From a virus: DNA of 39,892 bases. Where the stretch lies: UHGV virus genome UHGV-0038300; one strand, 5' to 3'. Both the position numbers and the translations under genes were made by a program. Positions 289-33,430 of the stretch are shown here, piece by piece (the stretch's first letter is position 1; every line of letters begins with the position of its first letter). Under the pieces are notes generated by a model. The model had not been told where the DNA came from and searched no databases. It worked only from the letters and a program-made list of their open reading frames with translations.

Positions 289-771
289 CTATCTGGTCAA
301 CGTGTCGTACTGTTTTTCGCAGACTCTTCCGGCTGCGGCTGCCCGGTCAGCATACTCTGCCAGTTGTCTGTTTCTCTCGAGAGATTTGCTGAGCACGTCG
401 GCAAGCAAAACTCCGGTGTCTGCGGCTGACGTCCCAGCGCCGACAATGGCGTTATACTGCCTGAGCTGCTCACGGATGGCAAAGAGTTGTTGCTGCAACC
501 TGCCAGCGCGAGCGGCAGCATCAAGAGCATCATTGCGCGCCTGGTCGATCCTCTGCTGAGCTTCACGTTCATTGGCCACTTTCTCCTGTTCGTAGTACTG
601 ACGAACTTTGTCTTCTTCGGCTTTGCGGTCTTCTTCCGCCTGCGCATACCCGGCATCGTACTGGCGACTGCCGTGTATATTCCAGGCAACCACTCCGACG
701 ATGAACAGAGCAGCAAGCATCAACACAATAAGCATCTGTTTCCAATATGCTTTTACGAATGCCCAGATCAT
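289..771 (-). CDS. Rz-like i-spanin (inner-membrane spanin)
   Basis: N-terminal TM helix followed by a charged coiled-coil region resembling lambda Rz; immediately downstream of the endolysin. Confidence 0.7.
297..572 (-). CDS. Rz1-like o-spanin lipoprotein embedded in the +1 frame of Rz
   Basis: Embedded ORF contains the lipoprotein signal [26 protein letters not shown] (lipobox LAGC); start codon uncertain (572 or 533). Confidence 0.55.
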   Translation of the reverse strand: MNVKLSRGSTRRAMMLLMLPLALAGCSNNSLPSVSSSGSITPLSALGRQPQTPEFCLPTCSANLSRETDNWQSMLTGQPQPEESAKNSTTR

Positions 772-1397
772 ATAGCCAGCACCTTACTGGCAGTGACGTA
801 CCGCGCGCGCCGGTCGTCGATGCCGTTCCTGCCACCATTGATAATCAGAGTTACACGTGCAATATCACCGGTATACTTCATGCATCCTTTGCTGGCAAAG
901 AACCACGCCGCGCTACGAGCCGCGTATTCGTCCTGCGCCAGCAGTTCAGGATTCTCCAGCAAGTCCACTTTCAAGCCGTTTCCGCAGTCACGATAGTTAT
1001 TCAAACCGGTAATCTGGATAAGTCCGCGACCTCGGTAATTCCAGCCATCGCCGGGGGCATTGTTCCCCATGCGTTTGCTGTACACCAGATTGGCAATCGC
1101 TCTCTGGCGCTCAGGTGGCAATGGTGGTTCACCAGCACGGCGCCCCAATGCGTTGGCCTGTCCCTGAGTGAGACGACCAGCCCGAACGAAGTTAGCCAGT
1201 CCGCTGACGCTGTAGTTGAAATTTTCCTGCAACCGGGTGAAGCCTCCAGACTCATGCCCGACCTGAGCAATAAACATTGCCTGATCTTCTGGTTTGCTGA
1301 TATCAAACTCTTTCATCGCAGAAGTTATATGCGAGAACCAGCGTGCGGCCAGCGCCTCGCTAATACCAGCAGCTCGCTGGAATTGTTTAATCTCCAT
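768..1397 (-). CDS. Endolysin, glycoside hydrolase family 19 (chitinase-like lysozyme)
   Basis: GH19-type motif AQVGHESGG and overall phage GH19 endolysin-like sequence; sits in the lysis cassette. Confidence 0.8.
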
Positions 1398-1695
1398 GTT
1401 TAGACCTCGTTATTTTGAAAATCTGAACGACGTTACCGCGAGTTTTAAGAACCGCAGCAAGCATGACAGCGTTGATAATGACCTCAGATAAATCCACAGC
1501 CATTGGCGTGCGTAACCAGATTGCATAGACGACACGAACAGGAATACTGGCCGCAGCAACAATAAGGAAATAAGCAAGCCACCCTCCCCATCTTCGGTGT
1601 TGTGAACCGTTACGCCGGAATGTGACAACACGAATTGCTATGCCAGTACAAATAAGTGCATTGGTGATAAGCAAAACAAGCTCATTAGTTACCAT
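1387..1695 (-). CDS. Small membrane protein, holin or antiholin candidate
   Basis: About 102 aa with predicted TM helices, directly upstream of and overlapping the endolysin start. Confidence 0.5.
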
Positions 1696-2095
1696 CGCCT
1701 TTTCTCCCCGGAATTAACTCGCGTGGATTATCGGAACGGTGATAGAGCCAGATGCCAATTCGAACTGCGACGATTGCTGACACGAATGCACCAGCAGAGA
1801 AAACAATCCCTTTCTCAAACGAGTCCTGCGTAATGGTAGGGATCAGGCTGGCTATGCCGATAAGAATTGATGCTGCTGGTTTGTAAAAGAGAAGGCCGCA
1901 AAGAAAGCTAAGCATCGACAGGAGCACCCGTCGGCGAATCGGATATTCGACAGCAGAGGTAACAAAAATTACCGCACCAGACAAAGAACCCAAAGCAACC
2001 TCCGGAGGAACACCTGCTATCACCGCAGCAAGAGACCCCATACTAAGCCACTGATTTAATGTTTCACTGGTTAGTTGAGCAGACATGTTTTTCAC
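1685..2095 (-). CDS. Membrane protein, holin candidate
   Basis: 136 aa with 3-4 hydrophobic helices; first gene of the lysis cassette, preceded by an AT-rich promoter-like region (2096-2414). Confidence 0.5.
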   Translation of the reverse strand: MKNMSAQLTSETLNQWLSMGSLAAVIAGVPPEVALGSLSGAVIFVTSAVEYPIRRRVLLSMLSFLCGLLFYKPAASILIGIASLIPTITQDSFEKGIVFSAGAFVSAIVAVRIGIWLYHRSDNPRELIPGRKGDGN

Positions 2096-2414
2096 CGTTT
2101 ATGTACATTAAAACCATAAGAAAAGAGAACAACACATTAAACCATAAATGGTTTTTTGTTACCTTGCAACAATTTGTGAAATAAATGAAACACAAAACAA
2201 TAATAAATAAACAGCAGGAGATATTTAAAAGATGGAATTTAACATATATTAAATATAAGCATGTGATAAGCAGAACACCTATTTATTCGCATGACAATAC
2301 ATTATATTGACAGATATTTAAATTAGATATTTATTGGTAAATACAGAGCATGTATTTTAAGTAAACCTGCGCTATAACAGCGCAGGTCAACAATTATAAA
2401 AAAAGAAATTTAAT

Positions 2415-4955
2415 TCATTTTTTTACATTGCCATTTTCAATGGCGAAAATTCTCTCTTCCATATTATCAATTCTCTCCCAGCATTGCTGAATTGATTTAA
2501 CAATAGGTGGGATGAATTCATCGTAACCAAGTGAGTAAACATCATCCCCACCATTTTTCAAGTGATGCTGTAGCCCACCGAACTCAACACCTAATTTTTC
2601 ACACAGTTTCAATACGTCCTGTGCAATAAACCAGTGATGGTATCGTTGACGTTTTTTACTGCCGTCAGGAGTTTTCTGCACTACTTCAAGATATTTTTCT
2701 TCGACATTCTCAATAGCTGATACAGTAATTCCATCAACATCTCGCTCTACTTTTTTTGGTACAATTCTTGTTTTTTCAATAACATCAACATAATCATCAC
2801 GCATATCCCAGCGACCATCGACAGGACGAAGCCCAAGGATAAATTCAATCCCCAGCAAGGTATCTCGGATATCTGTTTTATCACGCGCATCAGATCTGTT
2901 TTGCACAGTTCCATATACATATGTCGTTGTGGAAGAATTGCCAAGCTGCACCTGGTTACTTCCAGACACCCTTGCATCATTGCCAACAGTTGTTGTGTTG
3001 GTAAGTGATGATGTGCTTTCCCCTGATTGAGTTAATCTACCTGAATTATGTCCAATAGCCGTGTTTAATGCGCCGGTTGTATTTGTGACAAGAGAGCCAG
3101 ACCCAATTGCAACGTTACTGCTTCCCGATGTTGTTCCTTTTAATGCCTGCTGTCCAACCGCAACATTATTATCACCCGTTGCTGCTATAAGTGCCATGTG
3201 ACCAATAGAAACGGTAAATGAACCTAGCGTTTGAGTTTCACCGCATGCCCCATAACCAATTACAACAACATTATCTGTAATTGTTGACTCGGTTGCCGCT
3301 CCAGCACCAATAACAACGCTTTCATTCCCGGCAAGATTCTTGCGCATTGCGAACATTCCAATGCCAACATTATCATGCCCAGTCCCTGTACCTGCTGCCT
3401 CCGCAGCACCAAGACAGTTTCCCGCTCTGTAGCCAACCATGGTGTTATTTGAACCAATAGAGAAGTCTCCGGAAAAAGAGCCTACGTATACACTATTAGA
3501 CTGAGAGTAATCTCCAGGATTTCCATTCGCCCGATATCCTACTGCAACTGTATAAATAGTATCTGGAGCCTCAGCCATGGCCTCAAAGCCAACTCCAACG
3601 TTATATCTACCGCCCTTAACTTTTTCTCCTGCACCAAGTCCGAAGAATGAGTTATAGCTCCCGGTTGTTAGCCACTCGCCAGCAACAGAACCTACAGCAG
3701 TGTTTCCTGTTCCAGTACATCGATACAAAGTCAGGAAGCCAACTCCGGTATTATTATTTCCTGAAATATTACTCATCAATGATTTTGACCCAATGGCAGT
3801 ATTGTTAACACCATCGGTCAGATCCTGTAACGCTCGCGGGCCAAATGCTGTATTATCGTAACCCTTTGGCGCTGTTGTTGGATCTGGTAACTCAGGGGTT
3901 AGTTTTTCACCACCACCACCATTGGCACAAAGATTGTAAGATCGAATAAATTCAGCCACTGGCCCAAGTTTTAAATAACCATTGGCAATATTAATTCTGA
4001 CACTTACATTAACTGAGCTACCAGGAGCTTCTATTGTCCTGTCATCAACCCAGGTAAAACTCTGTGGTATCCCGTCATAAGTTAATGTCACATCTCCTTT
4101 ATCATTATAATTATAGAACAATGTATAACGCTCATTTATAGATTCAGAACCTGATGATCCTCCTCTCCTCCACCACTCTGCATTATCAAAAATAAGTAAT
4201 CCCGGACCATAATATTTAGCTTTCTGCCCCAAAATCATAGGGCTTGATAATCTCCATACCCCCTCAGGAACATATATATTGCTACTTATTCTTTCAGCAT
4301 TATTAAAAGCAGTATCACATAGCTCGTCACCACCTTCTTTAGCTCCAAAGTCCAGAACACTGACAGTATCCCGCATCTTATCCTGGAACGTTCGATATAC
4401 TGCTCCAGAACCATACTGAATAAACCAACCAAAACCACCAACAACCCCGGCGATTGCAGCATCGACATAATTACGCATTGAGCGATTATTTACAGCGTCC
4501 TGCTCAAGTGATGGATCTGCAAGGTTAGAAATTCTGTTTTGCTTTGCATCGTAATATTTTGCAAGCAAAGATGGTTTCATCAATGCACGTCTGAACCATC
4601 CAAAACATTGCTGGATCAGCATCGTCAGATAGTCAAAGGCATCTTCATGCACCTCGGGGAAAAATTTTCCCTGATTACGAAGATCAGTCTCCTGCACCAC
4701 ATCAAGCACACGATCTATCGTAATTCGCCATCCAGCAGCAAGCGGCGACGGAAGAACAACAGAACCGCCACTATAAGTGCCCGCCCCAGTTACCGTATAA
4801 CCGGTATCCAGAACCAATTCTGTTACGTTCCCGTTCAGGTCAGACACCTGAACAACCAGGTCGGATTTTTTGAAAATACGGAAGGTGTACGGGAATGATG
4901 TCGTAATGCCGTTACCGGTGTATTCGTTGTGGTCAACTTCGGTTGAGACCGTCAT
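2415..4955 (-). CDS. Tail fibre with glycine-rich fibre repeats and a C-terminal peptidase S74 intramolecular chaperone domain
   Basis: N-terminal TGNGITTSFPYTF fibre-anchor-like motif, long G/N/S-rich repeats, and the C-terminal autoproteolysis motif ...NRSDARDKTDI... followed by a chaperone-like domain. Confidence 0.85.
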   Translation of the reverse strand: MTVSTEVDHNEYTGNGITTSFPYTFRIFKKSDLVVQVSDLNGNVTELVLDTGYTVTGAGTYSGGSVVLPSPLAAGWRITIDRVLDVVQETDLRNQGKFFPEVHEDAFDYLTMLIQQCFGWFRRALMKPSLLAKYYDAKQNRISNLADPSLEQDAVNNRSMRNYVDAAIAGVVGGFGWFIQYGSGAVYRTFQDKMRDTVSVLDFGAKEGGDELCDTAFNNAERISSNIYVPEGVWRLSSPMILGQKAKYYGPGLLIFDNAEWWRRGGSSGSESINERYTLFYNYNDKGDVTLTYDGIPQSFTWVDDRTIEAPGSSVNVSVRINIANGYLKLGPVAEFIRSYNLCANGGGGEKLTPELPDPTTAPKGYDNTAFGPRALQDLTDGVNNTAIGSKSLMSNISGNNNTGVGFLTLYRCTGTGNTAVGSVAGEWLTTGSYNSFFGLGAGEKVKGGRYNVGVGFEAMAEAPDTIYTVAVGYRANGNPGDYSQSNSVYVGSFSGDFSIGSNNTMVGYRAGNCLGAAEAAGTGTGHDNVGIGMFAMRKNLAGNESVVIGAGAATESTITDNVVVIGYGACGETQTLGSFTVSIGHMALIAATGDNNVAVGQQALKGTTSGSSNVAIGSGSLVTNTTGALNTAIGHNSGRLTQSGESTSSLTNTTTVGNDARVSGSNQVQLGNSSTTTYVYGTVQNRSDARDKTDIRDTLLGIEFILGLRPVDGRWDMRDDYVDVIEKTRIVPKKVERDVDGITVSAIENVEEKYLEVVQKTPDGSKKRQRYHHWFIAQDVLKLCEKLGVEFGGLQHHLKNGGDDVYSLGYDEFIPPIVKSIQQCWERIDNMEERIFAIENGNVKK

Positions 4956-5058
4956 GTTAAATCTCCAGATAGTCGCAGCACCCGTTGCGCCGCATATCTG
5001 GTTATTCTATTACCTGAAAAACCACATATGGATAGAAAGACTATAAATACCAATAGAT

Positions 5059-5075
5059 ATTACCTTTCGGGTAAT
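5059..5075. promoter_or_regulatory. 17-bp palindromic operator-like site ATTACC-TTTCG-GGTAAT
   Basis: Perfect 6-5-6 inverted repeat belonging to the dispersed site family; upstream of the LexA box and the tail-fibre gene. Confidence 0.6.
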
Positions 5076-5113
5076 TTGCAAAACGTGCTGGATAGCAAAC
5101 AAATTATTTGCTA

Positions 5114-5129
5114 CTGTATAAATATACAG
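5114..5129. promoter_or_regulatory. LexA (SOS) box CTGT-ATAAATAT-ACAG
   Basis: Perfect CTGT-N8-ACAG with an AT-rich spacer (tactgtataaatatacagtt), 22 bp upstream of the ATG at 5151. Confidence 0.8.
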
Positions 5130-5150
5130 TTATTGCATGGAGAAGATAAG

Positions 5151-5408
5151 ATGCAGCAGTATCACTATCCACTGGAAGACGGATTTACCGAAAGGATTCA
5201 CACGCCGGGAGGCGTCAGATCACTGGTGGAGGGATCGCACTTGATGAAATTACTCCGGGATCTCGATAAGGATGGATTTAATGTCGATGGCCCACTTGCC
5301 GAACTGACTGCACTGATTAACTACGTCACCAGCTCACAGATGTCTATGCGGGATCTGCAAACACATCTCGACTATTGTGCCGAACAATTACGAAAACAAA
5401 CCCGGTAA
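5151..5408 (+). CDS. Small (85 aa) antirepressor-like protein, homologous to the C-terminal domain of the Bro-N antirepressor; candidate SOS-inducible antirepressor
   Basis: RBS ggagaag then ATG 5151. Aligns with the C-terminus of the 6555-7247 product (PL..G....IH.P.GV..L.E.S.LM.LL..L..DG..V.G..AELT......V......RD.QTH..Y). The upstream part of the listed ORF is occupied by regulatory sites. Confidence 0.7.
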   Translation: MQQYHYPLEDGFTERIHTPGGVRSLVEGSHLMKLLRDLDKDGFNVDGPLAELTALINYVTSSQMSMRDLQTHLDYCAEQLRKQTR

Positions 5409-5430: not shown

Positions 5431-6159
5431 CTATCGTTTCGCTTTGTGCTCATCCCAGCACGTTTTGCACCATGCCATTAAGCCGTCCGCATTTTGATTA
5501 TTAGGGTAAAAGCTGGTTCGTTTTCTGCGGACATTACAAATTGGGCACCACTTCATATGGCGTGTATTCTTTGGGCCATCGAGACACCTTGCACACCACT
5601 TAGTCAATCCATCTGGATTTTTTGACGATTTCCTGAATTTTTCATATGGAAGGTTTATTCTGCATCGCAAGCACTGCTTGCTACCACTTGAAACTCTGTT
5701 AGCTGATTCTTCTTTTGGCGGCGATACAGAAGGTATTCTTGCTGGCTCTGATACTGCCTGAGGTGCTTTTTTAGATGACTGAGACGATATGTCACCACCA
5801 GGGAATCTTCCATGATATGCCGGACGCGTTGACACTCCAGGTGGAAGCTCAGCTGTAAACGGCTTTGGCTGAATCAGTTGCCTCTCTTTTGCTAACTCCT
5901 GCTGTTTATAATATGTCTGGATTACCGCACTATCATAAGCAGGAGGTGCGGAAATATTAGGCGCATTACCTCCAGTTTTTTGAAACTGAGTAGAGGTGTG
6001 TTCTATCACCTGTGTACGATTAATCGTTATCTCCCCATCTTCGGTCTTTATCGTTTTGTTATGATTAACGACCGTACGATCAGAGATCTTAGTCTTGTTC
6101 TGGTTGATAACGTAAATAATCACCGCAACCACACCAACAACTATCCAGAAAACTTCCAT
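5431..6159 (-). CDS. Membrane-anchored protein with a C-terminal duplicated Cys-rich (zinc-ribbon-like) module; function unknown
   Basis: N-terminal TM helix (MEVFWIVVGVVAVIIYVI), Pro/Ser-rich linker, then CLRC...WCARC and CPIC...WCKTC repeats; RBS gaggaaaag before the ATG; operator-like site just upstream. Confidence 0.6.
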   Translation of the reverse strand: MEVFWIVVGVVAVIIYVINQNKTKISDRTVVNHNKTIKTEDGEITINRTQVIEHTSTQFQKTGGNAPNISAPPAYDSAVIQTYYKQQELAKERQLIQPKPFTAELPPGVSTRPAYHGRFPGGDISSQSSKKAPQAVSEPARIPSVSPPKEESANRVSSGSKQCLRCRINLPYEKFRKSSKNPDGLTKWCARCLDGPKNTRHMKWCPICNVRRKRTSFYPNNQNADGLMAWCKTCWDEHKAKR

Positions 6160-6178
6160 TTCTTTTCCTCACAATAAC

Positions 6179-6195
6179 ATTACCTTAAAGGTAAT
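6179..6195. promoter_or_regulatory. 17-bp palindromic operator-like site ATTACC-TTAAA-GGTAAT
   Basis: Perfect inverted repeat about 20 bp upstream of the 5431-6159 gene start (minus strand). Confidence 0.6.
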
Positions 6196-6271
6196 ATCTT
6201 GCTTTCAGGTGATCAAGCGTTAAACCAAATCAACCAAATACGGTTGATTTTAATATTTCTTCACGTTTATC

Positions 6272-6288
6272 ATTACCTTTGAGGTAAA
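6272..6288. promoter_or_regulatory. 17-bp operator-like site ATTACC-TTTGA-GGTAAA overlapping a putative rightward promoter
   Basis: Overlaps a -10-like TATCAT (6268-6273) set 18 bp after a -35-like TTGATT (6244-6249). Confidence 0.5.
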
Positions 6289-6554
6289 TTTACATCGCAC
6301 TCCTCTTGTGCCATAGTAATCGGGCACTGGCAAAATCCAGTGCCGGGATTGGTCTCCCGGATTACTACAGAGGCACATATGCCGCATAAGCGGTTTTTTT
6401 ATGTGTAAAGCGCACCTATTCTATGGTGGGCTGTGTGGGGGCACCGAAAGGTGCGCCGGGTTCCTTTGTAGCCGGTAAGACCAACTCTGCACAGTTCACC
6501 ACCATCTGATTGGTCTCAGCGGTGGTGATTAACCTAACTACAAAGGTGATCGCC

Positions 6555-7247
6555 ATGAATACCAAACCTTCCATCTTTTCCTTTGAGTCATCCTGCCAGA
6601 TCCGTATGTTCATGATTGACGGAGAACCTTGGTTTGTCACCAAAGATGTGTGCAATGCTTTGAATATTGATGTTACACAAGCGAGAAAACTTGATAAAAA
6701 AGGCTGGAACAAAAAGGGGCTGTATTCAATACAGACCCCTGGTGGAATACAAGAACTATCCATCGTTTCAGAATCAGGTCTCTACATCCTTATTCTGCGT
6801 TGCAAAGAGGCAATGACAGGGGGAACGAGAGCATTCAGATTTCTTGAATGGGTTACAGGTGAGGTTCTTCCTCAGATCCGCCGCACAGGAAGTTACATTA
6901 AAAACTCGCTCCCGCAGGAAGAACGCATAAAGATGGTTGCCGACCAGGTAGCCAACGCCACGGCGTCAGCAGTAATGCAGGCGATGAAGATAGAGAACAA
7001 AACCTACAGTGCCCCGCTGAAGCCCGGCTACCGCAGCCTGATTCATTCGCCGTCTGGTGTTCTCGGCCTGACGGAGAACTCACTGCTGATGAATTTGCTG
7101 AACCAGTTACAGGAAGACGGGCATGATGTATCGGGCGCGGCAGCGGAGCTGACCACCATGTTCTGCTACATCGTCGGTGTGAGCAAATGCCTGCGTGACA
7201 TCCAGACTCACGCGGAGTACATCAACGACAAAGCAGGGTTCTTCTGA
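6555..7247 (+). CDS. Antirepressor with an N-terminal Bro-N domain
   Basis: N-terminus ...FSFESSCQIRMFMIDGEPWFVTKDVCNALNI... is typical of Bro-N/Ant proteins; RBS aaggtga before ATG 6555 (the listed ORF begins at an upstream TTG). Confidence 0.8.
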   Translation: MNTKPSIFSFESSCQIRMFMIDGEPWFVTKDVCNALNIDVTQARKLDKKGWNKKGLYSIQTPGGIQELSIVSESGLYILILRCKEAMTGGTRAFRFLEWVTGEVLPQIRRTGSYIKNSLPQEERIKMVADQVANATASAVMQAMKIENKTYSAPLKPGYRSLIHSPSGVLGLTENSLLMNLLNQLQEDGHDVSGAAAELTTMFCYIVGVSKCLRDIQTHAEYINDKAGFF

Positions 7248-7311
7248 CGGCGGCGGCACAGGGATGTGCCTTTAAAATAATCATTGGCGATGTGATGTAG
7301 ATTCGCGTAAT

Positions 7312-7328
7312 ATTACCTTAAAGGTAAA
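7312..7328. promoter_or_regulatory. 17-bp operator-like site ATTACC-TTAAA-GGTAAA
   Basis: Inverted repeat about 25 bp upstream of the 7354 start codon. Confidence 0.55.
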
Positions 7329-7353
7329 CCATGTGTTTACATGAGGAGGAGAT

Positions 7354-7563
7354 ATGGGATTTTGGTTCGCTCGTACAAAAACGAGGGATAATGCACCCAG
7401 CCCTCAGGCAAAAAATGCAGAAGTTCCGGCGTCAGCGCAGGTTAACAAGCGTGGTGGAGTATATATCTCATCACAGCAAATTTCTGAGCTTCCTGAGGTT
7501 AAGGAGATGCGTCGTCTCGCTGCTGCAATTGTTAAACAGGATCTTGCCACTGTAAGGAAGTAG
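7354..7563 (+). CDS. Small hypothetical protein (69 aa), first gene of a two-gene accessory module
   Basis: Strong RBS gaggaggag 6 nt before the ATG; its stop TAG overlaps the GTG start of the next ORF by one nucleotide. Confidence 0.55.
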   Translation: MGFWFARTKTRDNAPSPQAKNAEVPASAQVNKRGGVYISSQQISELPEVKEMRRLAAAIVKQDLATVRK

Positions 7564-8429
7564 TGTTGCTAGCTCTTCTAATTATCCCAATCCTGGTTAG
7601 CGGTTATATTATGATAACCGCTAACCAGTATCATTATTTCCGTTTATACCGACACGAAGGCCAGCTTCTTTATATGAAAGTAGCGGCACTAGGTACATAT
7701 TGCCTTGTTGCATCAGTAATAATTGCAGCCGCTATAAAATATAAATGGCCTGATTTTCACCTAGTTCACGATATGGTGGAAACTTTTAATGTAACATCAA
7801 AACCAGAAACAGATAGAATTTACATGTGGCTGCTTCTTCTCTCAGCCACATCCATTTGCTTCTCTTTGTGTTATGTGTCTGTTGTGTGGGTGAAAGATTT
7901 TCTTCTTGGTTGTTTTTATAAACGTGATATTTACGAGCAAAAAACAGAGGCAATGAAGGCCAGAGTACTGCGAAAAACTTACTCGCAAGGTTCTTTAGAC
8001 TTACTATTGCTTGATGCTATTGAATCGGATCCTAAACGACCAATGCTGATTACTTTATCATCAAACAAAGTGTATGTTGGAATAATAAATGGTTCTGGTG
8101 AACCAACGGAAAATCAGGGTCCGCATCAGCACATATCTTTTGTTCCTTTAATGTCAGGATACAGGAACAAAGAAAACTTATCTGTCACATTCACTAATGC
8201 TTATCCAGGAGAAATACAGGTCAAGCGGACTGCAGCAATAAGAGGAATTAGCAGAAAGAAAGTGCCAGGACTTGAGATCATGGTGTCTATTGACGAAATA
8301 AGTTATATATCATGGTTTGATTTTGAAGTATATAAAGCAACAAATAACAAAGTAGAATCCAGGGGGCACGTTATTCGTGTTACCAAAAATGGAAGAAATA
8401 TATATCAAAGAAATAGCAAAAAAGAATAG
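7563..8429 (+). CDS. Hypothetical membrane protein (3 N-terminal TM helices plus a ~170-aa soluble C-terminal domain); candidate exclusion/abortive-infection-type accessory protein
   Basis: Long ORF with hydrophobic helices at about aa 2-18, 35-58 and 85-110; markedly AT-rich compared with flanking phage genes; exact start (GTG 7563 or a nearby codon) uncertain. Confidence 0.6.
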   Translation: MLLALLIIPILVSGYIMITANQYHYFRLYRHEGQLLYMKVAALGTYCLVASVIIAAAIKYKWPDFHLVHDMVETFNVTSKPETDRIYMWLLLLSATSICFSLCYVSVVWVKDFLLGCFYKRDIYEQKTEAMKARVLRKTYSQGSLDLLLLDAIESDPKRPMLITLSSNKVYVGIINGSGEPTENQGPHQHISFVPLMSGYRNKENLSVTFTNAYPGEIQVKRTAAIRGISRKKVPGLEIMVSIDEISYISWFDFEVYKATNNKVESRGHVIRVTKNGRNIYQRNSKKE

Positions 8430-8521
8430 CCCGCGCTGCGGGCTTTTTTGTGGACGAAACAAAAGTCAGTGCTACACTCATTGACGCCACATTGAGGTGG
8501 CTTATAGATGGAAATTTCACA

Positions 8522-8683
8522 ATGAAAAAAGCATTTGCTGCACTGTTCGTTTTGTTGTCTCTGGTAGCTTCAACTCAGGCCTTTGCCGGTCGTTGTCAGC
8601 ACGACAGCGATACTGCTGCAGACGGCTCCCGCTGCGGTGGGCGTTCTGCGGATTCCCGCCCGGGCGGCGGTGGCATTCGTTAA
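8522..8683 (+). CDS. Small secreted peptide candidate (53 aa; signal peptide then a Gly/Arg/Cys-rich tail)
   Basis: MKKAFAALFVLLSLVASTQAFA|GRC... has a classic Sec signal peptide; sigma70-like -35 TTGACG (8481-8486) and -10 TATAGA (8503-8508) upstream; the RBS is weak. Confidence 0.4.
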   Translation: MKKAFAALFVLLSLVASTQAFAGRCQHDSDTAADGSRCGGRSADSRPGGGGIR

Positions 8684-8705
8684 AAACAAGGCCGCGAAAG
8701 CGGCC
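8682..8705 (-). terminator. Rho-independent terminator closing the late structural operon
   Basis: GC stem ggccgc-gaaa-gcggcc (8690-8705) followed, on the minus strand, by a T-run (complement of aaaaa 8682-8686). Confidence 0.6.
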
Positions 8706-8719
8706 TGTGACATGTCACG
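8706..8719. repeat. Palindrome tGTGACATGTCACg, copy 1 of 3
   Basis: Perfect 12-bp palindrome GTGACATGTCAC immediately abutting the terminator stem; same core at 25588-25601 and 27853-27866. Confidence 0.7.
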
Positions 8720-8725
8720 CTCACG

Positions 8726-8866
8726 TTATGACAAGCCTATGTACCCTGCTACACCAGATAATATCAAAATAACTGCAACAGCAAATTCACCATCATCAAT
8801 GATACATTTACGGTTCATAACGCCAAGTGCAACAAGCGCAAACACAACAAGAATAAAAGCAATCAT
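8726..8866 (-). CDS. Small hydrophobic protein (46 aa, two predicted TM segments), not in the supplied ORF track
   Basis: Manual translation MIAFILVVFALVALGVMNRKCIIDDGEFAVAVILILSGVAGYIGLS*; RBS aaggatga before the ATG; lies between the last ejection-protein gene and the terminator. Confidence 0.4.
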   Translation of the reverse strand: MIAFILVVFALVALGVMNRKCIIDDGEFAVAVILILSGVAGYIGLS

Positions 8867-8875
8867 TTCTCATCC

Positions 8876-11350
8876 TTATTGCGGAGTGACATCCTGAGGT
8901 CGCCACCAGTATGTCTGGTTAAACTCTTTCTTCGAACGTTGCTCCATTTTACGCAAATAACCTGGTGAAAAATACTCCTGCATCTGGTTAAAGATCATGT
9001 GATCGAGAGCCGCCTTTAAGTACCAGAGATTCGCACCTGGCATCAGACCTTTCCCCAGCTTGACCAGATCACCACCAGTCTGCTCATTCTTCCCTTCCAC
9101 AGCATTTAACGGTATGCCCTGAGCAATCTTCACTACGTCATCAACCAGACCAGCTACCGGGCCAAGCATCGACGCCAGCGCGCCGCTTCCGTACCTAGTG
9201 TGATCTGACAATAAAAAGTCACCGTAAAGGCCAAGACCACCACCTTTCAGTAGAGCACCAAGCCAAAATTTAGCAGCATCTTCTCCTGTCATCTCACGAG
9301 GATTACGACCAGACGCAAGGTCGTTAAGTTGCTGCGACAAAGCGCCAAGAATGGTCGTACTGGCAATAAACGTCGCAATATATGCCGCACGCCCACCAGC
9401 AGACGGCATACCCATAGCGCGTGACCAGTGACGCATAACCACCGAGATAGGGAACGATTTAAACAGGAAAACACTTCTCGTTAATTCACCTTTCCATGTT
9501 CCACGCTGAATACCAGAACCGGTTATCAGTTGCTCACGTGCTCCCGGTGTAATAACAGCCATATCAACTTCTTCAGTTACGGCACCGAGCAGTTTACGCA
9601 TTGCCTCAAATTTCACGCGTTCAGACTCACCAAGATGTTTAACTGCTGAATCAGGGATACGCATAATGCTTTCCGGTGTCAGCATCGTATTATTACCGTT
9701 CCCCCAGTCCTCCTGTTGCGCCAGCTTCCATACGCTCCAGTCTGTGTCAGTAATCCCTTTGCTTTTCAGGATACGAAAATCAGAGTCATCGAGGCTACGA
9801 AGGTCTGGTGTCCGTGACACTACTTCTCCCAGGCTTCCCATCATGGTTACGCCATAGGCGCGCTTGTGCGCATCTGACCATGCTGTAAGCCCACTGGCAC
9901 GCATTACCGCCGTTGCCGCCCAACGAGACACTGACGGCCCCATATTATCCATCGCCCAGCGGTTAACGCTGCCAAGTAGAGATTCCATCGCCAGACCAGC
10001 GCGGCGCGCCCGCGCAAGTTCTGTACGGTTCGTTGGGTCCATAGCTTCAAGCTGGTTGCGGAATAACTGGTTCATTGGAAGGTTGGTAACCTTCGCAGAC
10101 AGATACATGGTTCCAAGATCAGAGAACGATGACAGCAACGCGGATCCGAGTCTGCTGGCAACCAGCCAGTTGCGGATATTGTCAGACCATCGCGCGATGT
10201 GCGGATTCGCTACAGGCTGTGTCTTTCCGGAAATAAAGTTGTACAGATTCTCTGTGTTGTTCGCCAGCCGCTCGACTTTACCGGTTTTACTCGGGTTAGC
10301 TGTTGCCGTTTCTGCCTTAACCTGATCAAGAAGGGAGCGGAAAACATGATCGGGGTTTGGACCATATGTTTCCACCAGAGCAATATCTTTACTGATACCT
10401 TCCAGGTGACCGACCATGATTTCCCATAGAGAGCGATCACCATAAAGTTGTTGATATTGGAGATAGGAATCTGCATCTTTGAAATGTATCTGTCGTGATG
10501 CATTACCACGGTTAGCACGTGCGCCGGAAATTCGCATTCCGGTATCAGTAAGCTTATTCAGCCCACCAGTAGCGATCGTGTTATAAGCCTCTCCAAGAAA
10601 TGCAGACAACTCGGCATCGTTCATCAGTTGTCCATCGGCTCGGGTATAATATTTGCGATCCAGCTTACCTATAACATCGCCAACCCACTTATCCTTTGAT
10701 ACCGCCCCAACCTTTTCCATAGAATGATGTTGAGGGATCCCCCAGTTTTCGAGATAGCCAATGTCCCCACCAGCATCATTAAACCGGCGGCGCAGCAGCT
10801 CTGTAACTTCTCTCCACGCCTTAGCACCTTTTCTTGCTTTAGCATTGCCAGTATTTTGCCCTCGCATTTCATATACCAGGTCACGCACGCCAGCTTCATC
10901 TTCAAACAGGCCAAAAAAGCGAGGATCAACTGCTTCAAATGCCTCTTGCAATTGACTCAATGCATAATCACGAGTGGCTTTTGTTCTGGACTCAACAGAG
11001 AGGAAATTCGATTTACCGTCTGCATTAAAAGCAATAGTACGGTTAAGAGCGCCAAGTTTCCCATCAGCCCCTTGATAGCTATTGATAAATTTATCCAATC
11101 TCTGACGTGCGGCTATAGTGAGGGCCACACGACGTTTCTTTAATGCCGCTTCTCGCTGTAATTCTTCAGATGCCAATTGTGCTGCACGATATAGCCGCTC
11201 TGATTCGGAAAGTTGTCTCCACGACATCGGGTCATCACGAGCAATGGAGCGCATATTTCGATAAATGCGGTCTTCAATGTTCTGTATTTCTCGCGCCGTT
11301 AACGTGCGCTGCGCCGCCTGCTGGACCGCTTGTATACATTCCTGTCTCAT
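8876..11350 (-). CDS. Large internal virion / DNA-ejection protein (gp16-position in a T7-like order)
   Basis: 824-aa ORF at the end of the structural operon after two other large ejection-type proteins; no enzymatic motif recognised. Confidence 0.6.
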   Translation of the reverse strand: MRQECIQAVQQAAQRTLTAREIQNIEDRIYRNMRSIARDDPMSWRQLSESERLYRAAQLASEELQREAALKKRRVALTIAARQRLDKFINSYQGADGKLGALNRTIAFNADGKSNFLSVESRTKATRDYALSQLQEAFEAVDPRFFGLFEDEAGVRDLVYEMRGQNTGNAKARKGAKAWREVTELLRRRFNDAGGDIGYLENWGIPQHHSMEKVGAVSKDKWVGDVIGKLDRKYYTRADGQLMNDAELSAFLGEAYNTIATGGLNKLTDTGMRISGARANRGNASRQIHFKDADSYLQYQQLYGDRSLWEIMVGHLEGISKDIALVETYGPNPDHVFRSLLDQVKAETATANPSKTGKVERLANNTENLYNFISGKTQPVANPHIARWSDNIRNWLVASRLGSALLSSFSDLGTMYLSAKVTNLPMNQLFRNQLEAMDPTNRTELARARRAGLAMESLLGSVNRWAMDNMGPSVSRWAATAVMRASGLTAWSDAHKRAYGVTMMGSLGEVVSRTPDLRSLDDSDFRILKSKGITDTDWSVWKLAQQEDWGNGNNTMLTPESIMRIPDSAVKHLGESERVKFEAMRKLLGAVTEEVDMAVITPGAREQLITGSGIQRGTWKGELTRSVFLFKSFPISVVMRHWSRAMGMPSAGGRAAYIATFIASTTILGALSQQLNDLASGRNPREMTGEDAAKFWLGALLKGGGLGLYGDFLLSDHTRYGSGALASMLGPVAGLVDDVVKIAQGIPLNAVEGKNEQTGGDLVKLGKGLMPGANLWYLKAALDHMIFNQMQEYFSPGYLRKMEQRSKKEFNQTYWWRPQDVTPQ

Positions 11351-24854: not shown

Positions 24855-24943
24855 ATCAATGACTCCGTACGCAATTAAATTATTACCAATTTAACCACAT
24901 ATGATTTATTTATCGTAGACAGTTGACATTTAACGCACGAATT

Positions 24944-24960
24944 ATTACCTTTCAGGTAAG
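24944..24960. promoter_or_regulatory. 17-bp operator-like site ATTACC-TTTCA-GGTAAG
   Basis: Member of the dispersed site family; 16 bp downstream of a TTGACA hexamer (24923-24928) in the non-coding region upstream of the tRNA. Confidence 0.5.
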
Positions 24961-25281
24961 CAAAGAGTTCATTCCGGTTATTAACCTGACTGGCTTGTCG
25001 TTAAATTGAACAGGTGGGGTGAGCTTTTATTTTGAGCAGTACGGTGTATGGCACATGCGCCGATAGCGGTCTGGATACGTTTAAGGGGCACCCTCCCTTG
25101 CTCGGGCAAACGAACCAGGTAGCCGGAATGTGCAAGTCGAGCGGTTTTATTCCGCGCACGGGGATTCACCATCCCGGCGATTCGGTGTGACACCTCGGAA
25201 GAGACGAGGGTACAACGATGAGAGCATTTATGGAGCCGCGACAAAGTGTGGCGCCTTAACAGGCTAAGTGCTCTCAGCGTT

Positions 25282-25358
25282 GTGGCATTAGCTCAGTCGG
25301 ACAGAGCAACCGCCTTCTAAGCGGTTGGTCGCAGGTTCGAATCCTGCATGCCACGCCA
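25282..25358 (+). tRNA. tRNA-Arg (anticodon UCU, reads AGA), 77 nt with encoded CCA
   Basis: Hand-folded cloverleaf: acceptor gtggcat/atgccac, D-stem gctc/gagc, anticodon stem accgc/gcggt with loop cTTCTAa (U33, A37), T-arm gcagg-TTCGAAT-cctgc, discriminator G, CCA. Confidence 0.85.
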
Positions 25359-25587
25359 GAATCACGCCTAAGGACCGTGATGCCAGAAGTTCCAGGTGCT
25401 TGGCGGTGATGGTTTCCCTTGAGGGACTATCACCGCCCTTTTTACAGCAGGACGCCATTGCGATGACTTCATGCTGTAAACCCGTACAGCCACGGAAGGC
25501 AAAACTCATTGCTTCCAGTTCGCCCGGTTCGCCGGGCATTTTTTTAAGGTGTGAATCATGAAATACGAATTCGATGGATTTTGATGT

Positions 25588-25601
25588 CGTGACATGTCAC
25601 A
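25588..25601. repeat. Palindrome cGTGACATGTCACa, copy 2 of 3
   Basis: Same 12-bp core as at 8706-8719 and 27853-27866; directly next to a terminator hairpin. Confidence 0.7.
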
Positions 25602-27150: not shown

Positions 27151-27746
27151 TGATTACCATCCTGACGTTCTTTGAGTCGCTTCCTGGCTGCTGCTATGCG
27201 ATCAGCAATTGTCACATTCACATTAACATCCAGACGTTCTTTGAACGCGTTGACATCAACATGCTTACCAATCAGCTCAAGGTTCTTCACCTTGTCAGGC
27301 CATTTAATTTTTTTGAGGATTGTCTCTATCGAATCCTCGTTCATGTTCATGATGGTCGATGACAGATCAAAGCCACTAAGCGTAGTGCGCCAGATTTTCG
27401 GCCACTCACGGATTGGTTTAAGGCTCCCATCGTCGTTGAGGATGTCGATCACGTCCATCTGGTCGATCTCCACCAGGCGCATGAGAACGTAATCAGCACT
27501 GACGCGCATTCGTTTGTTGCGCTCCTCCATCAACTCGGCAATCCGTTTTTGAATGCGTTCATCGCGCATCATGACACTGGCTTTAACTGCCGCTGTATTT
27601 GGGGAGAATCCTGCGTTAATCGCTGCCTGAGTCTGGTTTTCAGGCGTTTTGATGTATGACTGGCAATAAGCCTCCTGCATTGCTGTTAGTGGCTTAAATT
27701 GCGTTGATTTGCGTTTATAGGTTTTAGGTTCAGCAGGCATCATAAC
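27147..27746 (-). CDS. Terminase small subunit
   Basis: HTH-containing N-terminus (...LTAMQEAYCQSYIKTPENQTQAAINAGFS...) typical of small terminases; the listed ORF extends to a TTG at 27821, but an ATG near 27746 with an upstream RBS is more likely. Confidence 0.7.
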   Translation of the reverse strand, partial: VMMPAEPKTYKRKSTQFKPLTAMQEAYCQSYIKTPENQTQAAINAGFSPNTAAVKASVMMRDERIQKRIAELMEERNKRMRVSADYVLMRLVEIDQMDVIDILNDDGSLKPIREWPKIWRTTLSGFDLSSTIMNMNEDSIETILKKIKWPDKVKNLELIGKHVDVNAFKERLDVNVNVTIADRIAAARKRLKERQDGNQ

Positions 27747-27786
27747 CACCGTGGTAATAGTTACCGTTGTGGTAATAGTACCATGC

Positions 27787-27852: not shown

Positions 27853-27866
27853 CGTGACATGTCACA
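27853..27866. repeat. Palindrome cGTGACATGTCACa, copy 3 of 3
   Basis: Same core as the other two copies; overlaps the stop codon of the 27862-28203 gene, about 40 bp upstream of the late-leader hairpin. Confidence 0.7.
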
Positions 27867-28203
27867 CTATTAATTTCGTTTCATGCCAGCCTTTAGTCAC
27901 CCAGCATTGCGAGTCACCATTACACGGGCATGAATTAACTGGAACTCTCTCGCCGCACTTACCGCAACATTTTCTGCTGATCGATTTTATACGCCCGCGC
28001 ACGCGTGCATCATCCTGGCGGATCAGTAACGCTATATACTCACCAAATTCGTAAGGCGCACGCCCGGGGCGACGCGTGGCACAGTTACGCTCCAGCATTT
28101 CAATTTCCTGAGCATCAAGCACAATTTCCAGCTTACGCACACCAGATGCAGCTTGTCTGGCTCTCTGAGCGGCTTTGCGCTCTGCTGCTGATTTAGCCAT
28201 CAA
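27862..28203 (-). CDS. Small basic protein with a C-terminal Cys cluster; candidate late-gene regulator
   Basis: 113 aa with CCGKCGERVPVNSCPCNGDSQC (zinc-binding-like); last gene before the late promoter region. The function is inferred from position only. Confidence 0.4.
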   Translation of the reverse strand: MMAKSAAERKAAQRARQAASGVRKLEIVLDAQEIEMLERNCATRRPGRAPYEFGEYIALLIRQDDARVRGRIKSISRKCCGKCGERVPVNSCPCNGDSQCWVTKGWHETKLIV

Positions 28204-30399: not shown

Positions 30400-30443
30400 A
30401 AAAACCACATAAGACACGAAATCAATAGAGTTTAGAATATTTT

Positions 30444-32845: not shown

Positions 32846-33430
32846 ATGAAAAGTATCCAGGACGTCCGCAGGCAAAATCTCAACGACTTGATCGACCGTG
32901 AATTCAATGGTGTTCAGACGCGGATGGCAGAAAAACTTGGAACTCAGGCAAATCTGGTAAACCGCTGGGCTCTTGGCAAGAAGGTTATCGGCGACCAGGT
33001 TGCGCGAAAAATTGAAGCTGCCGCCAATAAACCACGTAACTGGCTTGATATCGATCGCTCGCTTTCTCAGGAAGGTTTTCAGCCTGTCGGCCCAAGCGAC
33101 ATTGGTCAGCTGGCGGCTCACAACCTGGAACGCTGGATGAGCGAAAGCCGCGACCTTTCAACACAGGGAAAACTTCACCGCGCATCCGGCGTCGCCCAGG
33201 TGACAATCAGCCGCCTGTTAAACAATGAGGTCAGCGTTTCCATTTCCACCCTGGAGAATGTTGCATCCGCATTCGGGCGTCACGGCTATGAATTACTGAT
33301 TCACCCGCACGACCCTGCGACCATCAACTATGACCGCTCGCGCTACGCATTGTTACCCGAAACCGAGAAAGCAAAGATCGAAAGTTACATTGAATTTGTC
33401 ATCAACCAGAACGAAAAAAACAAACAATAA
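32846..33430 (+). CDS. CI-like prophage repressor with an N-terminal XRE-type HTH, a second HTH-like segment and no LexA/S24 peptidase domain
   Basis: HTH ...VQTRMAEKLGTQANLVNRWALGKK...; no Ser-Lys peptidase signature seen; divergent from the cro-like gene and followed by a strong terminator. Confidence 0.65.
   Translation: MKSIQDVRRQNLNDLIDREFNGVQTRMAEKLGTQANLVNRWALGKKVIGDQVARKIEAAANKPRNWLDIDRSLSQEGFQPVGPSDIGQLAAHNLERWMSESRDLSTQGKLHRASGVAQVTISRLLNNEVSVSISTLENVASAFGRHGYELLIHPHDPATINYDRSRYALLPETEKAKIESYIEFVINQNEKNKQ

Follow-up and report, generated by a model that had tools for sequence, protein, structure and literature searches.

The closest described relatives of the DNA analysed here are epsilon15 (NC_004775) and phiV10 (NC_007804), podophages of the genus Uetakevirus. 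In the late part of their genomes, a structural operon, a small membrane protein gene, a terminator, opposite-strand gene(s), a repressor site, and the tail fibre gene follow one another, and the remaining order is a moron slot, a gp23-like holin, a holin, a GH19 endolysin, Rz/Rz1, att, and the integrase. The annotation of epsilon15 reads gp17, gp18, a terminator, the opposite-strand gp19, a 'repressor' protein-binding site with an IHF site, and the gp20 tail fibre; after gp20 come a terminator, opposite-strand serotype-conversion genes, gp23, holin, endolysin, and Rz/Rz1. In phage SPC32H, LexA reportedly represses ant, and Ant is said to inactivate a non-cleavable Rep. In P22, ant and the tailspike gene 9 point the same way, and read-through transcription, reportedly across the immI region, accounts for the expression of gene 9. 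With these systems I compared the virus genome UHGV-0038300, a stretch of 39,892 nucleotides (hereafter, the window), in which the tail fibre gene and the lysis cassette lie behind a block of genes that are mostly on the plus strand.

It was found that the window has the epsilon15/phiV10 order, with Rep operators at the same places. The same gene order is annotated in epsilon15, phiV10, TL-2011b, EC.W1-9, SPC32H, Tyrion, and two Klebsiella phages, and the islands between the late operon and the tail fibre gene of the relatives range from one gene up to about 4 kb. A sequence-only reading of the window had pointed out this layout. The layout is family-wide and no peculiarity of the window, and the annotation of epsilon15 and phiV10 already has a terminator and a repressor site upstream of the tailspike gene. 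Judged from these annotations, the placement of the tail fibre and lysis genes behind an antirepressor region is the normal, previously annotated architecture of epsilon15/phiV10-type phages. The parts are also members of known systems, namely SPC32H Rep/Ant, P1-type c4/isrK, S74 tail fibres, and a holin-endolysin-spanin cassette; their identities, order, and conservation are observations. The window differs from its two closest relatives in that its island is larger (3.9 kb, compared with one gene in epsilon15 and about 1.5 kb in phiV10), in that it has no O-antigen-modifying gene between the tail fibre and lysis genes, and in that its tail fibre has another distal part, with an S74 chaperone.

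The ends of the window carry a 17-bp direct repeat, AATCATTCCCACTCAAT, at 162-178 and 39817-39833 (two exact copies, compared with 0.01 expected). This att core, which encodes ...IEWE-stop, is identical to the att core at the 3′ end of guaA used by ZX5 (PMC9782041). Therefore, the window is a complete integrated prophage of the Uetakevirus-like (epsilon15/phiV10/SPC32H) type. The lysis genes lie at one end of the prophage and the integrase at the other. Its first 9 kb is a patchwork of segments 80-97% identical to epsilon15/phiV10-type podophages, with matches to TL-2011b, EC.W1-9, ZX5, phiV10, epsilon15, SPN1S, Tyrion, and Klebsiella prophages. The identity of the matched segments is 90-97% to the E. 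coli members and ~76-83% to the Salmonella and Enterobacter members.

I consider it probable, taking the account as a whole, that this Uetakevirus-like prophage has an induction-control insert and promoters of its own for the tail fibre and for the lysis genes. The co-oriented series of morphogenesis and lysis genes would be cut into several transcription units by short opposite-strand inserts, and the insert between the structural operon and the tail fibre gene would be the induction-control region. There, a LexA-repressed small Ant would inactivate a non-cleavable Rep after DNA damage, a Bro-N::Ant antirepressor would be kept silent by a P1-type c4 antisense RNA from its own leader, and a few further genes of unassigned function would have promoters with Rep operators. 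Most likely, the tail fibre gene would be transcribed from its own promoter, with the -10 element TAGAAT at 5009-5004 in an invariant block, and the lysis cassette partly by read-through of a weak hairpin after the tail fibre gene and partly from a second promoter-like block at 2151-2136.

Candidate promoters of the tail fibre and lysis genes

The tail fibre gene and the ant gene diverge from a 195-nt intergenic region of 35.9% GC at 4956-5150. The elements of this gap, and those between the tail fibre gene and the lysis cassette, are as follows.

5114-5129, unstranded: LexA box CTGTATAAATATACAG, 22 nt upstream of the ant ATG (LexA-box pattern match)
5060-5074, unstranded: Rep operator TTACC-N5-GGTAA, TTACCTTTCGGGTAA
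5004-5031, minus strand: conserved block CCATATGTGGTT-TTTCA-GGTAATAGAAT, candidate tail fibre promoter (from the alignment; function predicted)
4965-5001, minus strand: hairpin in the tail fibre leader, in which the Shine-Dalgarno sequence GGAG pairs through its first two bases with the 3′ arm (-20.9 kcal/mol, z = -5.2)
2364-2388, minus strand: 11-bp GC-rich hairpin with the poor U-tract UUUACUU, probably a weak or partial terminator (-18.9 kcal/mol, z = -6.3)
2136-2151, minus strand: conserved lysis-upstream block CCATTTATGG-TTTAAT, candidate lysis promoter (from alignment and motif search; function predicted)

I aligned the gap between ant and the tail fibre gene for nine phages of Escherichia, Salmonella, Enterobacter, and Klebsiella. 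Four blocks are conserved in a diverged spacer: the LexA box, CTGGATAG, the operator, and (T)TCATAT(G/A)TGGTT-N5-GGTAATAGAAT. The last of these has the family form CATATGTGGTT-N5-GGTAATAGAAT, and its GGTAATAGAAT part is invariant in the nine phages from four host genera, with diverging flanks. A candidate -10 element, TAGAAT, lies at 5009-5004 and is invariant, as is a GGTAAT half-site beside it; a -35-like TCCATA lies 17 nt upstream. TCCATA-17-TAGAAT of the window agrees with the sigma-70 consensus at 8/12 positions, and TTCATA-17-TAGAAT of most relatives at 9/12. By an exact-pattern scan, the block was found in at least 120 contigs of IMG/VR; among those listed, the operator is 29-30 nt upstream in 118/120, and a tail fibre start (MTVST...) follows downstream in all.

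The first half of the block recurs elsewhere. On the minus strand, the motif C(A/T)T(A/T)T(G/A)TGGTT is present at 5020-5031, 24893-24903, 30403-30413, and 2141-2151, each time downstream of a Rep operator, and it precedes the tail fibre gene, the portal operon, the resolvase operon, and the lysis cassette, respectively; epsilon15 keeps all four, the lysis variant included. The 9-mer TATGTGGTT occurs exactly three times in the window (5028-5020, 24901-24893, and 30411-30403); each copy lies between genes on the minus strand, with an operator upstream of it. A paralogous block, CATATGTGGTT-N5-GGTAATAAT, lies at 24903-24877 upstream of the structural (portal) operon in the same register as at the tail fibre gene, both in the window and in epsilon15. 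The recurrence suggests that the block is a promoter module, whose activity and timing are predictions. Other identities of the CATATGTGG motif were considered by eye and dropped: an IHF site, a DnaA box, and a sigma-32 -10, a sigma-54 element, or a CRP site, for which the motif does not fit the consensus spacing.

What do the operators of the gap control? The pattern TTACC-N5-GGTAA has 15 matches in the window, compared with 0.75 expected by chance. These operators are found between the repressor and cro-like genes, at the leftward early promoter, and ahead of the Holliday-junction-resolvase operon, the terminase genes, and the portal operon, and four are in the island (5060, 6180, 6273, and 7313); their positions are those of the 'repressor' sites annotated in epsilon15, the 5060 site included. 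The operator-like site that the sequence-only reading had noticed in 4956-5150 is real and double, consisting of the Rep operator and the LexA box. The LexA box is kept in 9/9 aligned phages and in 115/120 of the IMG/VR contigs listed, and it probably overlaps the ant promoter, whose position is predicted. The other operators of the island are abutted by a plus-strand -10-like hexamer (repeat family D3, at 6175, 6268, and 7308), and operator 5060 has the same -10 geometry, toward ant. Its centre is ~70 nt upstream of the predicted tail fibre start; therefore, no control of the tail fibre promoter is obvious. The operator-like sites in the gap are probably explained by control of the divergent ant gene, and operator 5060 may serve the ant promoter.

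It was also considered that the tail fibre promoter is not late but Rep-controlled, firing once Rep is inactivated, with Rep sitting on 5060-5074 and on the GGTAAT half-site. The fixed spacing of the operator from the block and the invariance of the half-site would suit such an arrangement, as would the structure of Rep, a tetramer with two pairs of DNA-binding domains (PMC9638917). In ZX5, overexpression of Rep abolishes the holin and endolysin transcripts (PMC9782041), but this result is equally expected from indirect control. The distance of ~70 nt speaks against Rep control, the operator geometry with its plus-strand -10-like hexamer fits a rightward ant promoter at least equally well, and early synthesis of lysis proteins would be unusual. 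I regard a Rep-controlled tail fibre promoter as rather unlikely.

The leader of the tail fibre gene bears on the same question. The hairpin forms within the 48 nt between TAGAAT and the tail fibre ATG, and hairpins of the same shape, with differing stem sequences, were seen when the leaders of relatives were folded individually. Among IMG/VR variants, a double change from CCAG/CUGG to CCGG/CCGG with a G-U intermediate was found, which is anecdotal evidence of covariation; RNAalifold on a MAFFT alignment of the leaders, which is not structure-aware, gave four pairs and no covariation. The full leader pairs two to four Shine-Dalgarno bases in 12/13 leader variants. The 5′ arm of the hairpin lies upstream of the predicted transcription start, and in RNA begun at the predicted +1 (7 nt after the -10) the Shine-Dalgarno sequence is free in 10/13 variants. 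In these folding models, the hairpin may mask translation on read-through RNA only. Since masking is predicted only when the RNA starts upstream of +1, this would argue for expression of the tail fibre from its own start. Fold-back inhibition in IS10 reportedly blocks the translation of read-through transcripts. The leader of the window resembles IS10 in that the 5′ arm of a hairpin masking the ribosome-binding site is upstream of the gene's own predicted start, so that foreign read-through RNA alone would be masked; it differs in that the window case is a prediction throughout and in that two of the four Shine-Dalgarno bases are paired in some relatives.

Upstream of the lysis cassette, CCATATATGGTTTATTGTGTATGATG is common to eight aligned phages about 65 nt before the start codon, whatever gene precedes, and at 2144-2136 the window keeps TGG-TTTAAT, which resembles an extended -10. 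For 40 IMG/VR loci extending as far as the cassette, the upstream sequences listed contain the core TGGTTTATTGTGTATGATG or something close to it, and 22/40 match a stricter pattern. The hairpin at 2388-2364, 26 nt after the tail fibre stop codon, fails the U-tract criterion and is not in the terminator-scan list. It has also to be weighed whether the tail fibre and lysis genes form one operon with a sole promoter upstream of the tail fibre gene. The lysis cassette would then depend on read-through of this weak hairpin, and the block at 2151-2136 would serve in RNA processing or in translation. In Klebsiella phage BUCT711, the tail fibre and holin genes are 8 nt apart, a spacing that suggests an ancestral tail-fibre-plus-lysis unit. 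A single operon would further agree with the lack of a proper U-tract after the tail fibre gene, with the loss of TATGAT in the window, and with the RNase III site annotated just upstream of gp23 in epsilon15. However, opposite-strand genes and an annotated terminator split the tail fibre gene from the lysis genes in epsilon15, phiV10, SPC32H, and Tyrion, and those four phages keep the lysis-upstream block, with a Rep operator about 37 nt upstream of it. The TGG-TTTAAT of the window is, in addition, a good extended -10. A single operon seems improbable to me, if worth keeping in mind.

Dedicated promoters are plausible and the most economical reading of these alignments, because the two blocks, which include -10-like hexamers, have diverged far less than the sequence around them. 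The sequence-only reading had proposed that the tail fibre and lysis genes need late promoters of their own, pointing to the intergenic regions with the operator-like site. Conserved blocks with -10-like hexamers do precede both, but the operator sites fit the control of ant. For the engineering of phiV10/epsilon15-type reporter or therapeutic phages, the blocks 5004-5031 and 2136-2151 are the likely promoters to keep.

The way from the structural operon to the tail fibre gene passes the following elements.

8876-11350, minus strand: gene of an 824-aa virion protein, preceding 8726-8866 in the operon
8726-8866, minus strand: last gene of the structural operon, 46-aa hydrophobic protein, homologue of phiV10 p21/p20 (PHROGs 7892 and 684, together with 8876-11350)
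8707-8718, unstranded: perfect 12-bp palindrome GTGACATGTCAC, abutting the terminator (exact copies counted in the window)
8706-8689, minus strand: intrinsic terminator at the end of the structural operon, hairpin AGGCCGCTTTCGCGGCCT then TGTTTTTAA
5415-5432, unstranded: hairpin terminator between the convergent ant and 5431-6159 (-14.4 kcal/mol, z = -3.3)

The terminator that the sequence-only reading had placed at 8682-8705 was found as a minus-strand hairpin at 8706-8689. It has a 7-bp stem with six GC pairs and the U-tract TGTTTTTAA, in line with the criterion for Rho-independent terminators; the stretch 8680-8725, which holds it, folds at -17.3 kcal/mol, and epsilon15 and phiV10 have an annotated terminator at the equivalent place. 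The late operon, not the island, includes the small gene 8726-8866 on the minus strand. From the tail fibre start at 4955 to the terminator there is 3.73 kb, with five plus-strand units in between, as the same reading had described (about 3.7 kb across a mostly plus-strand block).

The palindrome GTGACATGTCAC has exactly three copies in the window (8707-8718, 25589-25600, and 27854-27865), and all of them lie at the 3′ ends of minus-strand transcription units beside terminators. It is kept at equivalent sites in 9/10 relative loci (for example, L003 5518-5529, L009 2142-2153, and L010 9613-9624); epsilon15 has all three copies at matching places, and seven other relatives have the copy that ends the late operon. 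Its position relative to the hairpins is variable, before two and after one. By eye, the palindrome was also considered as a pair of divergent -35 elements, and no -10 was found at the right distance.

Several points weigh against dedicated promoters. The tail fibre candidate has TCCATA in place of TTCATA and therefore, at 8/12, fell below the threshold of a generic promoter scan and was not reported by it. The CATATGTGG motif stands at differing distances from the candidate -10 in the four promoter regions, and TATGAT, present before the lysis cassette in most relatives, has been lost there in the window. In the literature searched, transcript mapping was not found for any member of the epsilon15/phiV10 family. 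The palindrome beside each inter-unit terminator could be a regulated read-through device, and a small, Cys-rich, putative late regulator gene is present at 27862-28203 (PHROG 536, 'transcriptional regulator'). Its product has no match in Pfam, NCBIfam, or PDB, and its AlphaFold model, made with 16 close homologues, has a pLDDT of 51.6.

Taken together, could these genes belong to one antiterminated late transcript? A polymerase starting ahead of the structural genes would then be modified by a phage factor, read through 8706-8689, 5432-5415, and 2388-2364, and run antisense across the island. All the genes concerned are co-oriented, and the regulator-like gene 27862-28203 is the last of the early operon, with a terminator and then the terminase genes behind it, which is where Q lies in lambda; GTGACATGTCAC at each of the three inter-unit terminators is a possible site of read-through control. 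However, such a transcript would have to cross the two good terminators between the structural operon and the tail fibre gene (8706-8689 and 5432-5415) and at least three convergent promoter-like sites in the same path, namely one at the LexA box (for ant), one at 6244-6317 (for isrK/c4), and one at 7284-7313 (for the cargo operon). GTGACATGTCAC has no fixed position relative to the hairpins and does not occur in the stretch from the tail fibre gene to the lysis genes; each of the two targets has a strongly conserved promoter-like block immediately before it; on read-through RNA, the ribosome-binding site of the tail fibre gene would be masked by the leader hairpin; and no Q-like or N-like protein was detected by Pfam and PDB searches. 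I therefore consider an antiterminated transcript quite unlikely and dedicated promoters the better reading.

A more general idea may be put forward tentatively, as a possibility that I would not call probable. Uetakevirus-like phages might share an undescribed grammar of promoters and insulation, in which units start with operator, motif, and -10, end with a terminator and GTGACATGTCAC, and have, at the tail fibre gene, a fold-back leader to silence the translation of RNA that comes in from the antirepressor island. The start module of this grammar would consist of a Rep operator, a spacer of ~30-40 nt, C(A/T)T(A/T)T(G/A)TGGTT read by a putative phage factor, and the -10. If true, variable cargo and immunity modules could be swapped between units without disturbing late expression. 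The promoter motif, the unit-end palindrome, and the leader hairpin are three conserved small elements, of which the motif and the palindrome offer a handle on late-gene control in the epsilon15/phiV10 family.

The antirepressor region

The block between the structural operon and the tail fibre gene has five plus-strand units (ant at 5151-5408; isrK/c4 with the Bro-N gene at 6324-7247; 7354-7563; 7563-8429; and 8522-8683) and a sole minus-strand gene. Its features, with the repressor gene acting on it listed first, are as follows.

32846-33430: Rep repressor homologue (PDB 5D50_A, E = 4e-42)
5151-5408, plus strand: small antirepressor Ant, 85 aa, orthologue of SPC32H Ant (PDB 5D50_E, E = 1.4e-46)
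5431-6159, minus strand: 242-aa protein, the sole minus-strand gene of the island (PHROG 6762, unknown function)
6180-6194 and 6273-6287, unstranded: two Rep operators around promoter-like sites for the isrK/c4/ant transcript
6324-6400, plus strand: isrK-type small RNA including its terminator (Rfam, 74.7 bits; gathering score 50)
6419-6506, plus strand: C4 antisense RNA (Rfam RF01695, 78.6 bits; gathering score 45)
6555-7247, plus strand: Bro-N antirepressor gene (Pfam Bro-N, 2e-13)
7308-8444, plus strand: cargo operon behind the Rep operator 7313-7327, with a terminator at 8428-8444
7354-7563, plus strand: 69-aa cargo protein (PHROGs 5739/3630, unknown function, for the two cargo genes)
7563-8429, plus strand: 288-aa cargo protein with hydrophobic N-terminal segments (by eye)
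8522-8683, plus strand: 53-aa protein of PHROG 14503 ('membrane associated protein'), whose N-terminus looks like a signal peptide by eye

The sequence-only reading had called this block an accessory island. It is indeed an opposite-strand and mostly plus-strand block, but it is not merely accessory, since its core is antirepressor and immunity machinery (Ant, c4/isrK, and Bro-N). By homology, the island appears to be the antirepressor, or induction-control, region of the phage. This is mostly of value for annotation: the island would be an induction switch, with SOS- and RNA-controlled antirepressors that share one repressor-binding domain, and not random cargo.

The product of 5151-5408 aligns with 5D50_E over 83/85 residues and is about 86% identical to it by my own count, and the gene is annotated as 'ant' in SPC32H. 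The Rep homologue matches only helix-turn-helix families in Pfam, with no match to the S24 peptidase of autocleavage. From the match to 5D50/5D4Z together with the divergent, LexA-controlled ant, I take this to be the Rep-Ant system of SPC32H. The likeness extends to a LexA box directly upstream of the Ant homologue, to a Rep without an autocleavage domain, and to an ant gene divergent from the tailspike gene. By analogy, Ant may inactivate Rep after DNA damage in the window phage as well. Unlike SPC32H, the window has a second, longer antirepressor, in which an Ant-like domain is fused to Bro-N and which is presumably under RNA control; a second antirepressor of this kind is absent from SPC32H and epsilon15.

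The Bro-N protein was found to have, in its C-terminal 77 residues (149-225), a homologue of the small Ant, with 43% identity and a match to 5D50_E at 9e-14. Therefore, the phage appears to have two antirepressors with one kind of Rep-binding domain, one of which would be SOS-controlled and the other RNA-controlled. The C4 RNA gene lies 49 nt upstream of the Bro-N gene. By eye, its loop CCUUUGUAG is complementary to CTACAAAGG at 6539-6547, which lies over the Shine-Dalgarno sequence of the Bro-N gene, and also to CTACAGAGG at 6366-6374, and GACCAA in c4 is complementary to TTGGTC at 6349 and 6511. The pair of isrK and C4 RNAs was found in five relatives (phiV10, TL-2011b, EC.W1-9, Tyrion, and a Klebsiella phage); among the relatives checked, epsilon15, SPC32H, and BUCT711 do not have it.

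This arrangement resembles the immI region of P1/P7 (c4 - icd - ant) and the IsrK-AnrP system of Gifsy-1 (PMC4825925) in that a repressor-controlled promoter, in the window a predicted one, leads into a leader with isrK-type and C4 RNAs, whose c4 loops appear, in the window by eye, to be complementary to leader sites and to the ribosome-binding site of the downstream antirepressor. In contrast to P1, no icd-like ORF is seen between the end of c4 (6506) and the Bro-N ATG (6555), and the Rfam c4-a1b1 match scores 39.9, below the gathering score of 46.7. The antirepressor of the window is a Bro-N::Ant fusion unrelated to P1 Ant, and its repressor is an SPC32H-type Rep, not P1 C1. With P22, another temperate podovirus, the window shares the position of an antirepressor module, which lies behind the late operon and ahead of the tailspike gene (gene 9 in P22). 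In the window, however, the antirepressor genes face away from the tail fibre gene, and a conserved promoter-like block directly precedes the latter.

In ZX5, ORF4 encodes a Bro-N antirepressor that corresponds to the window gene by its position. When it was overexpressed, the prophage titre fell about 100-fold (10^8 to 10^6 PFU/mL) and repressor transcription dropped by 75%; the authors interpret this as promotion of the lytic cycle (PMC9782041).

As for the other genes of the island, the product of 5431-6159 has, by eye, a hydrophobic N-terminus and a Cys-rich C-terminus, with weak matches to endonuclease VII and Lar-like zinc ribbons; searches with PADLOC and NCBIfam gave no match. The defence-system search with PADLOC and the NCBIfam search gave no matches for the cargo genes and 8522-8683 either.

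In the same island, TL-2011b has a third antirepressor module of the P22 type, consisting of a sar RNA (L002 13131-13198; Rfam, 44.8 bits), an Arc-like repressor, and Ant. The slot of the island may therefore be a hotspot for antirepressor systems.

A second opposite-strand islet was found at 24960-25600, between the terminase and portal genes, with a tRNA-Arg(TCT) at 25282-25358 on the plus strand. One of its borders is formed by a terminator with the palindrome and the other by the promoter motif with a Rep operator (24945), which is the same design as in the large island. Elsewhere, two tandem operator-like sites, TTACCACAACGGTAA and TTACCACGGTGGTTA, lie at 27743-27775, just after a terminator and directly upstream of the probable start of the terminase small subunit (ATG near 27744); a 'repressor' site is annotated at the same place in epsilon15.

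The mosaic tail fibre, the AT-rich spacer, and the lysis cassette

The features on the far side of the gap are as follows.

2415-4955, minus strand: tail fibre/tailspike, 846 aa (PHROG tail families)
2087-2414, unstranded: AT-rich non-coding spacer, 25.9% GC
1685-2086, minus strand: holin-like membrane protein, epsilon15 gp23 homologue, first lysis gene (Pfam Phage_holin_8, 7.5e-11; PHROG 198, holin)
1387-1695, minus strand: holin (Pfam Phage_holin_3_7, 1.2e-27)
768-1397, minus strand: endolysin, GH19 type (Pfam PF00182, 1.2e-9; endolysin in the annotation of relatives)
289-771, minus strand: Rz-like i-spanin (Pfam DUF2514, 1.8e-44)
297-572: embedded Rz1 o-spanin ORF with the lipobox LAGC, as annotated in phiV10 and epsilon15

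Residues 1-181 of the tail fibre are an N-terminal adaptor of the Uetakevirus type; the distal part is rich in repeats, and an S74-type intramolecular chaperone stands at the C-terminus. The N-terminal 181 residues match PDB 28lx_A, the particle-binding domain of Klebsiella phage tailspikes, at 5.4e-31, as well as PHROGs of the family. From nucleotide 2453 to at least 4000, where the query ended, the gene has 98.8% identity with a tailspike gene (locus L011, 4947-7325) from an unrelated, P22-like prophage, which lies next to dacD in genomes of E. coli ST131 (O25:H4). With respect to the whole tail fibre gene, this match takes up the distal 80%. By these matches, the tail fibre appears to be a mosaic, in which the adaptor is that of the family and the receptor-binding part and the S74 chaperone were acquired from a P22-like prophage. 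This comparison of the receptor-binding region with other phages, as the sequence-only reading had proposed, supports its view that the tail fibre is the likely host-range determinant: the distal module was exchanged with an ST131 P22-like tailspike. For annotation, the gene would be a swapped-in host-range module related to ST131 prophage tailspikes.

The match to the P22-like tailspike ends 38 nt before the stop codon. Therefore, a recombination joint lies at the very 3′ end of the gene.

A self-cleaving S74 chaperone domain had likewise been read from the sequence. The domain is supported through its homologues and a Ser-Lys motif, but the window's own match to Pfam S74 (PF13884) is below threshold, at 19.3 bits against a cut-off of 22, and covers profile positions 1-32 of 58. 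Nearly all of the best 120 homologues listed for the C-terminal 206 residues carry PF13884 (E-values from 1e-43 to 1e-65), and a handful of them have no Pfam domain or another one recorded. The motif RSDxRDK (R47-S48-D49-x-R51-D52-K53) is invariant in 19 sequences, and its Ser-Lys dyad corresponds to S688/K693. An S74-type domain starting from there (nucleotides about 2418-2894), with predicted self-cleavage at S688, is supported by these comparisons. A sequence search of the C-terminal 177 residues against PDB chains gave chance matches only.

The first lysis gene starts at the ATG at 2086, as aligned with seven relatives; therefore, the spacer is 2087-2414. The sequence-only reading had recorded an AT-rich intergenic region at 2096-2414, and with this adjustment of its bounds it holds: 2096-2414 has 25.7% GC, compared with 48.4% for the window, and no ORF longer than 43 aa, hence no credible ORF. 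Only 2000-2166 is common with other phages, and the remaining 250 nt of the spacer is unmatched in phages; 2150-2470 has no match in 5,426 E. coli genomes. At the position of the spacer, relatives carry oac, gtr(-like), or wzy-like/O-antigen ligase-like genes, or nothing. Thus, the AT-rich gap appears to be the family's moron slot for surface-modification genes, empty in the window. The slot 2087-2414 would be a natural insertion site for phage engineering.

Most relatives have a short upstream ORF of 12 codons (ATGCACAGTAAACGGTGG...) with a strong Shine-Dalgarno sequence, AAGGGGG, which overlaps the start of the first lysis gene. In the corresponding region of the window (2087-2130), the Shine-Dalgarno sequence has been lost, and a 1-nt deletion shifts the frame.

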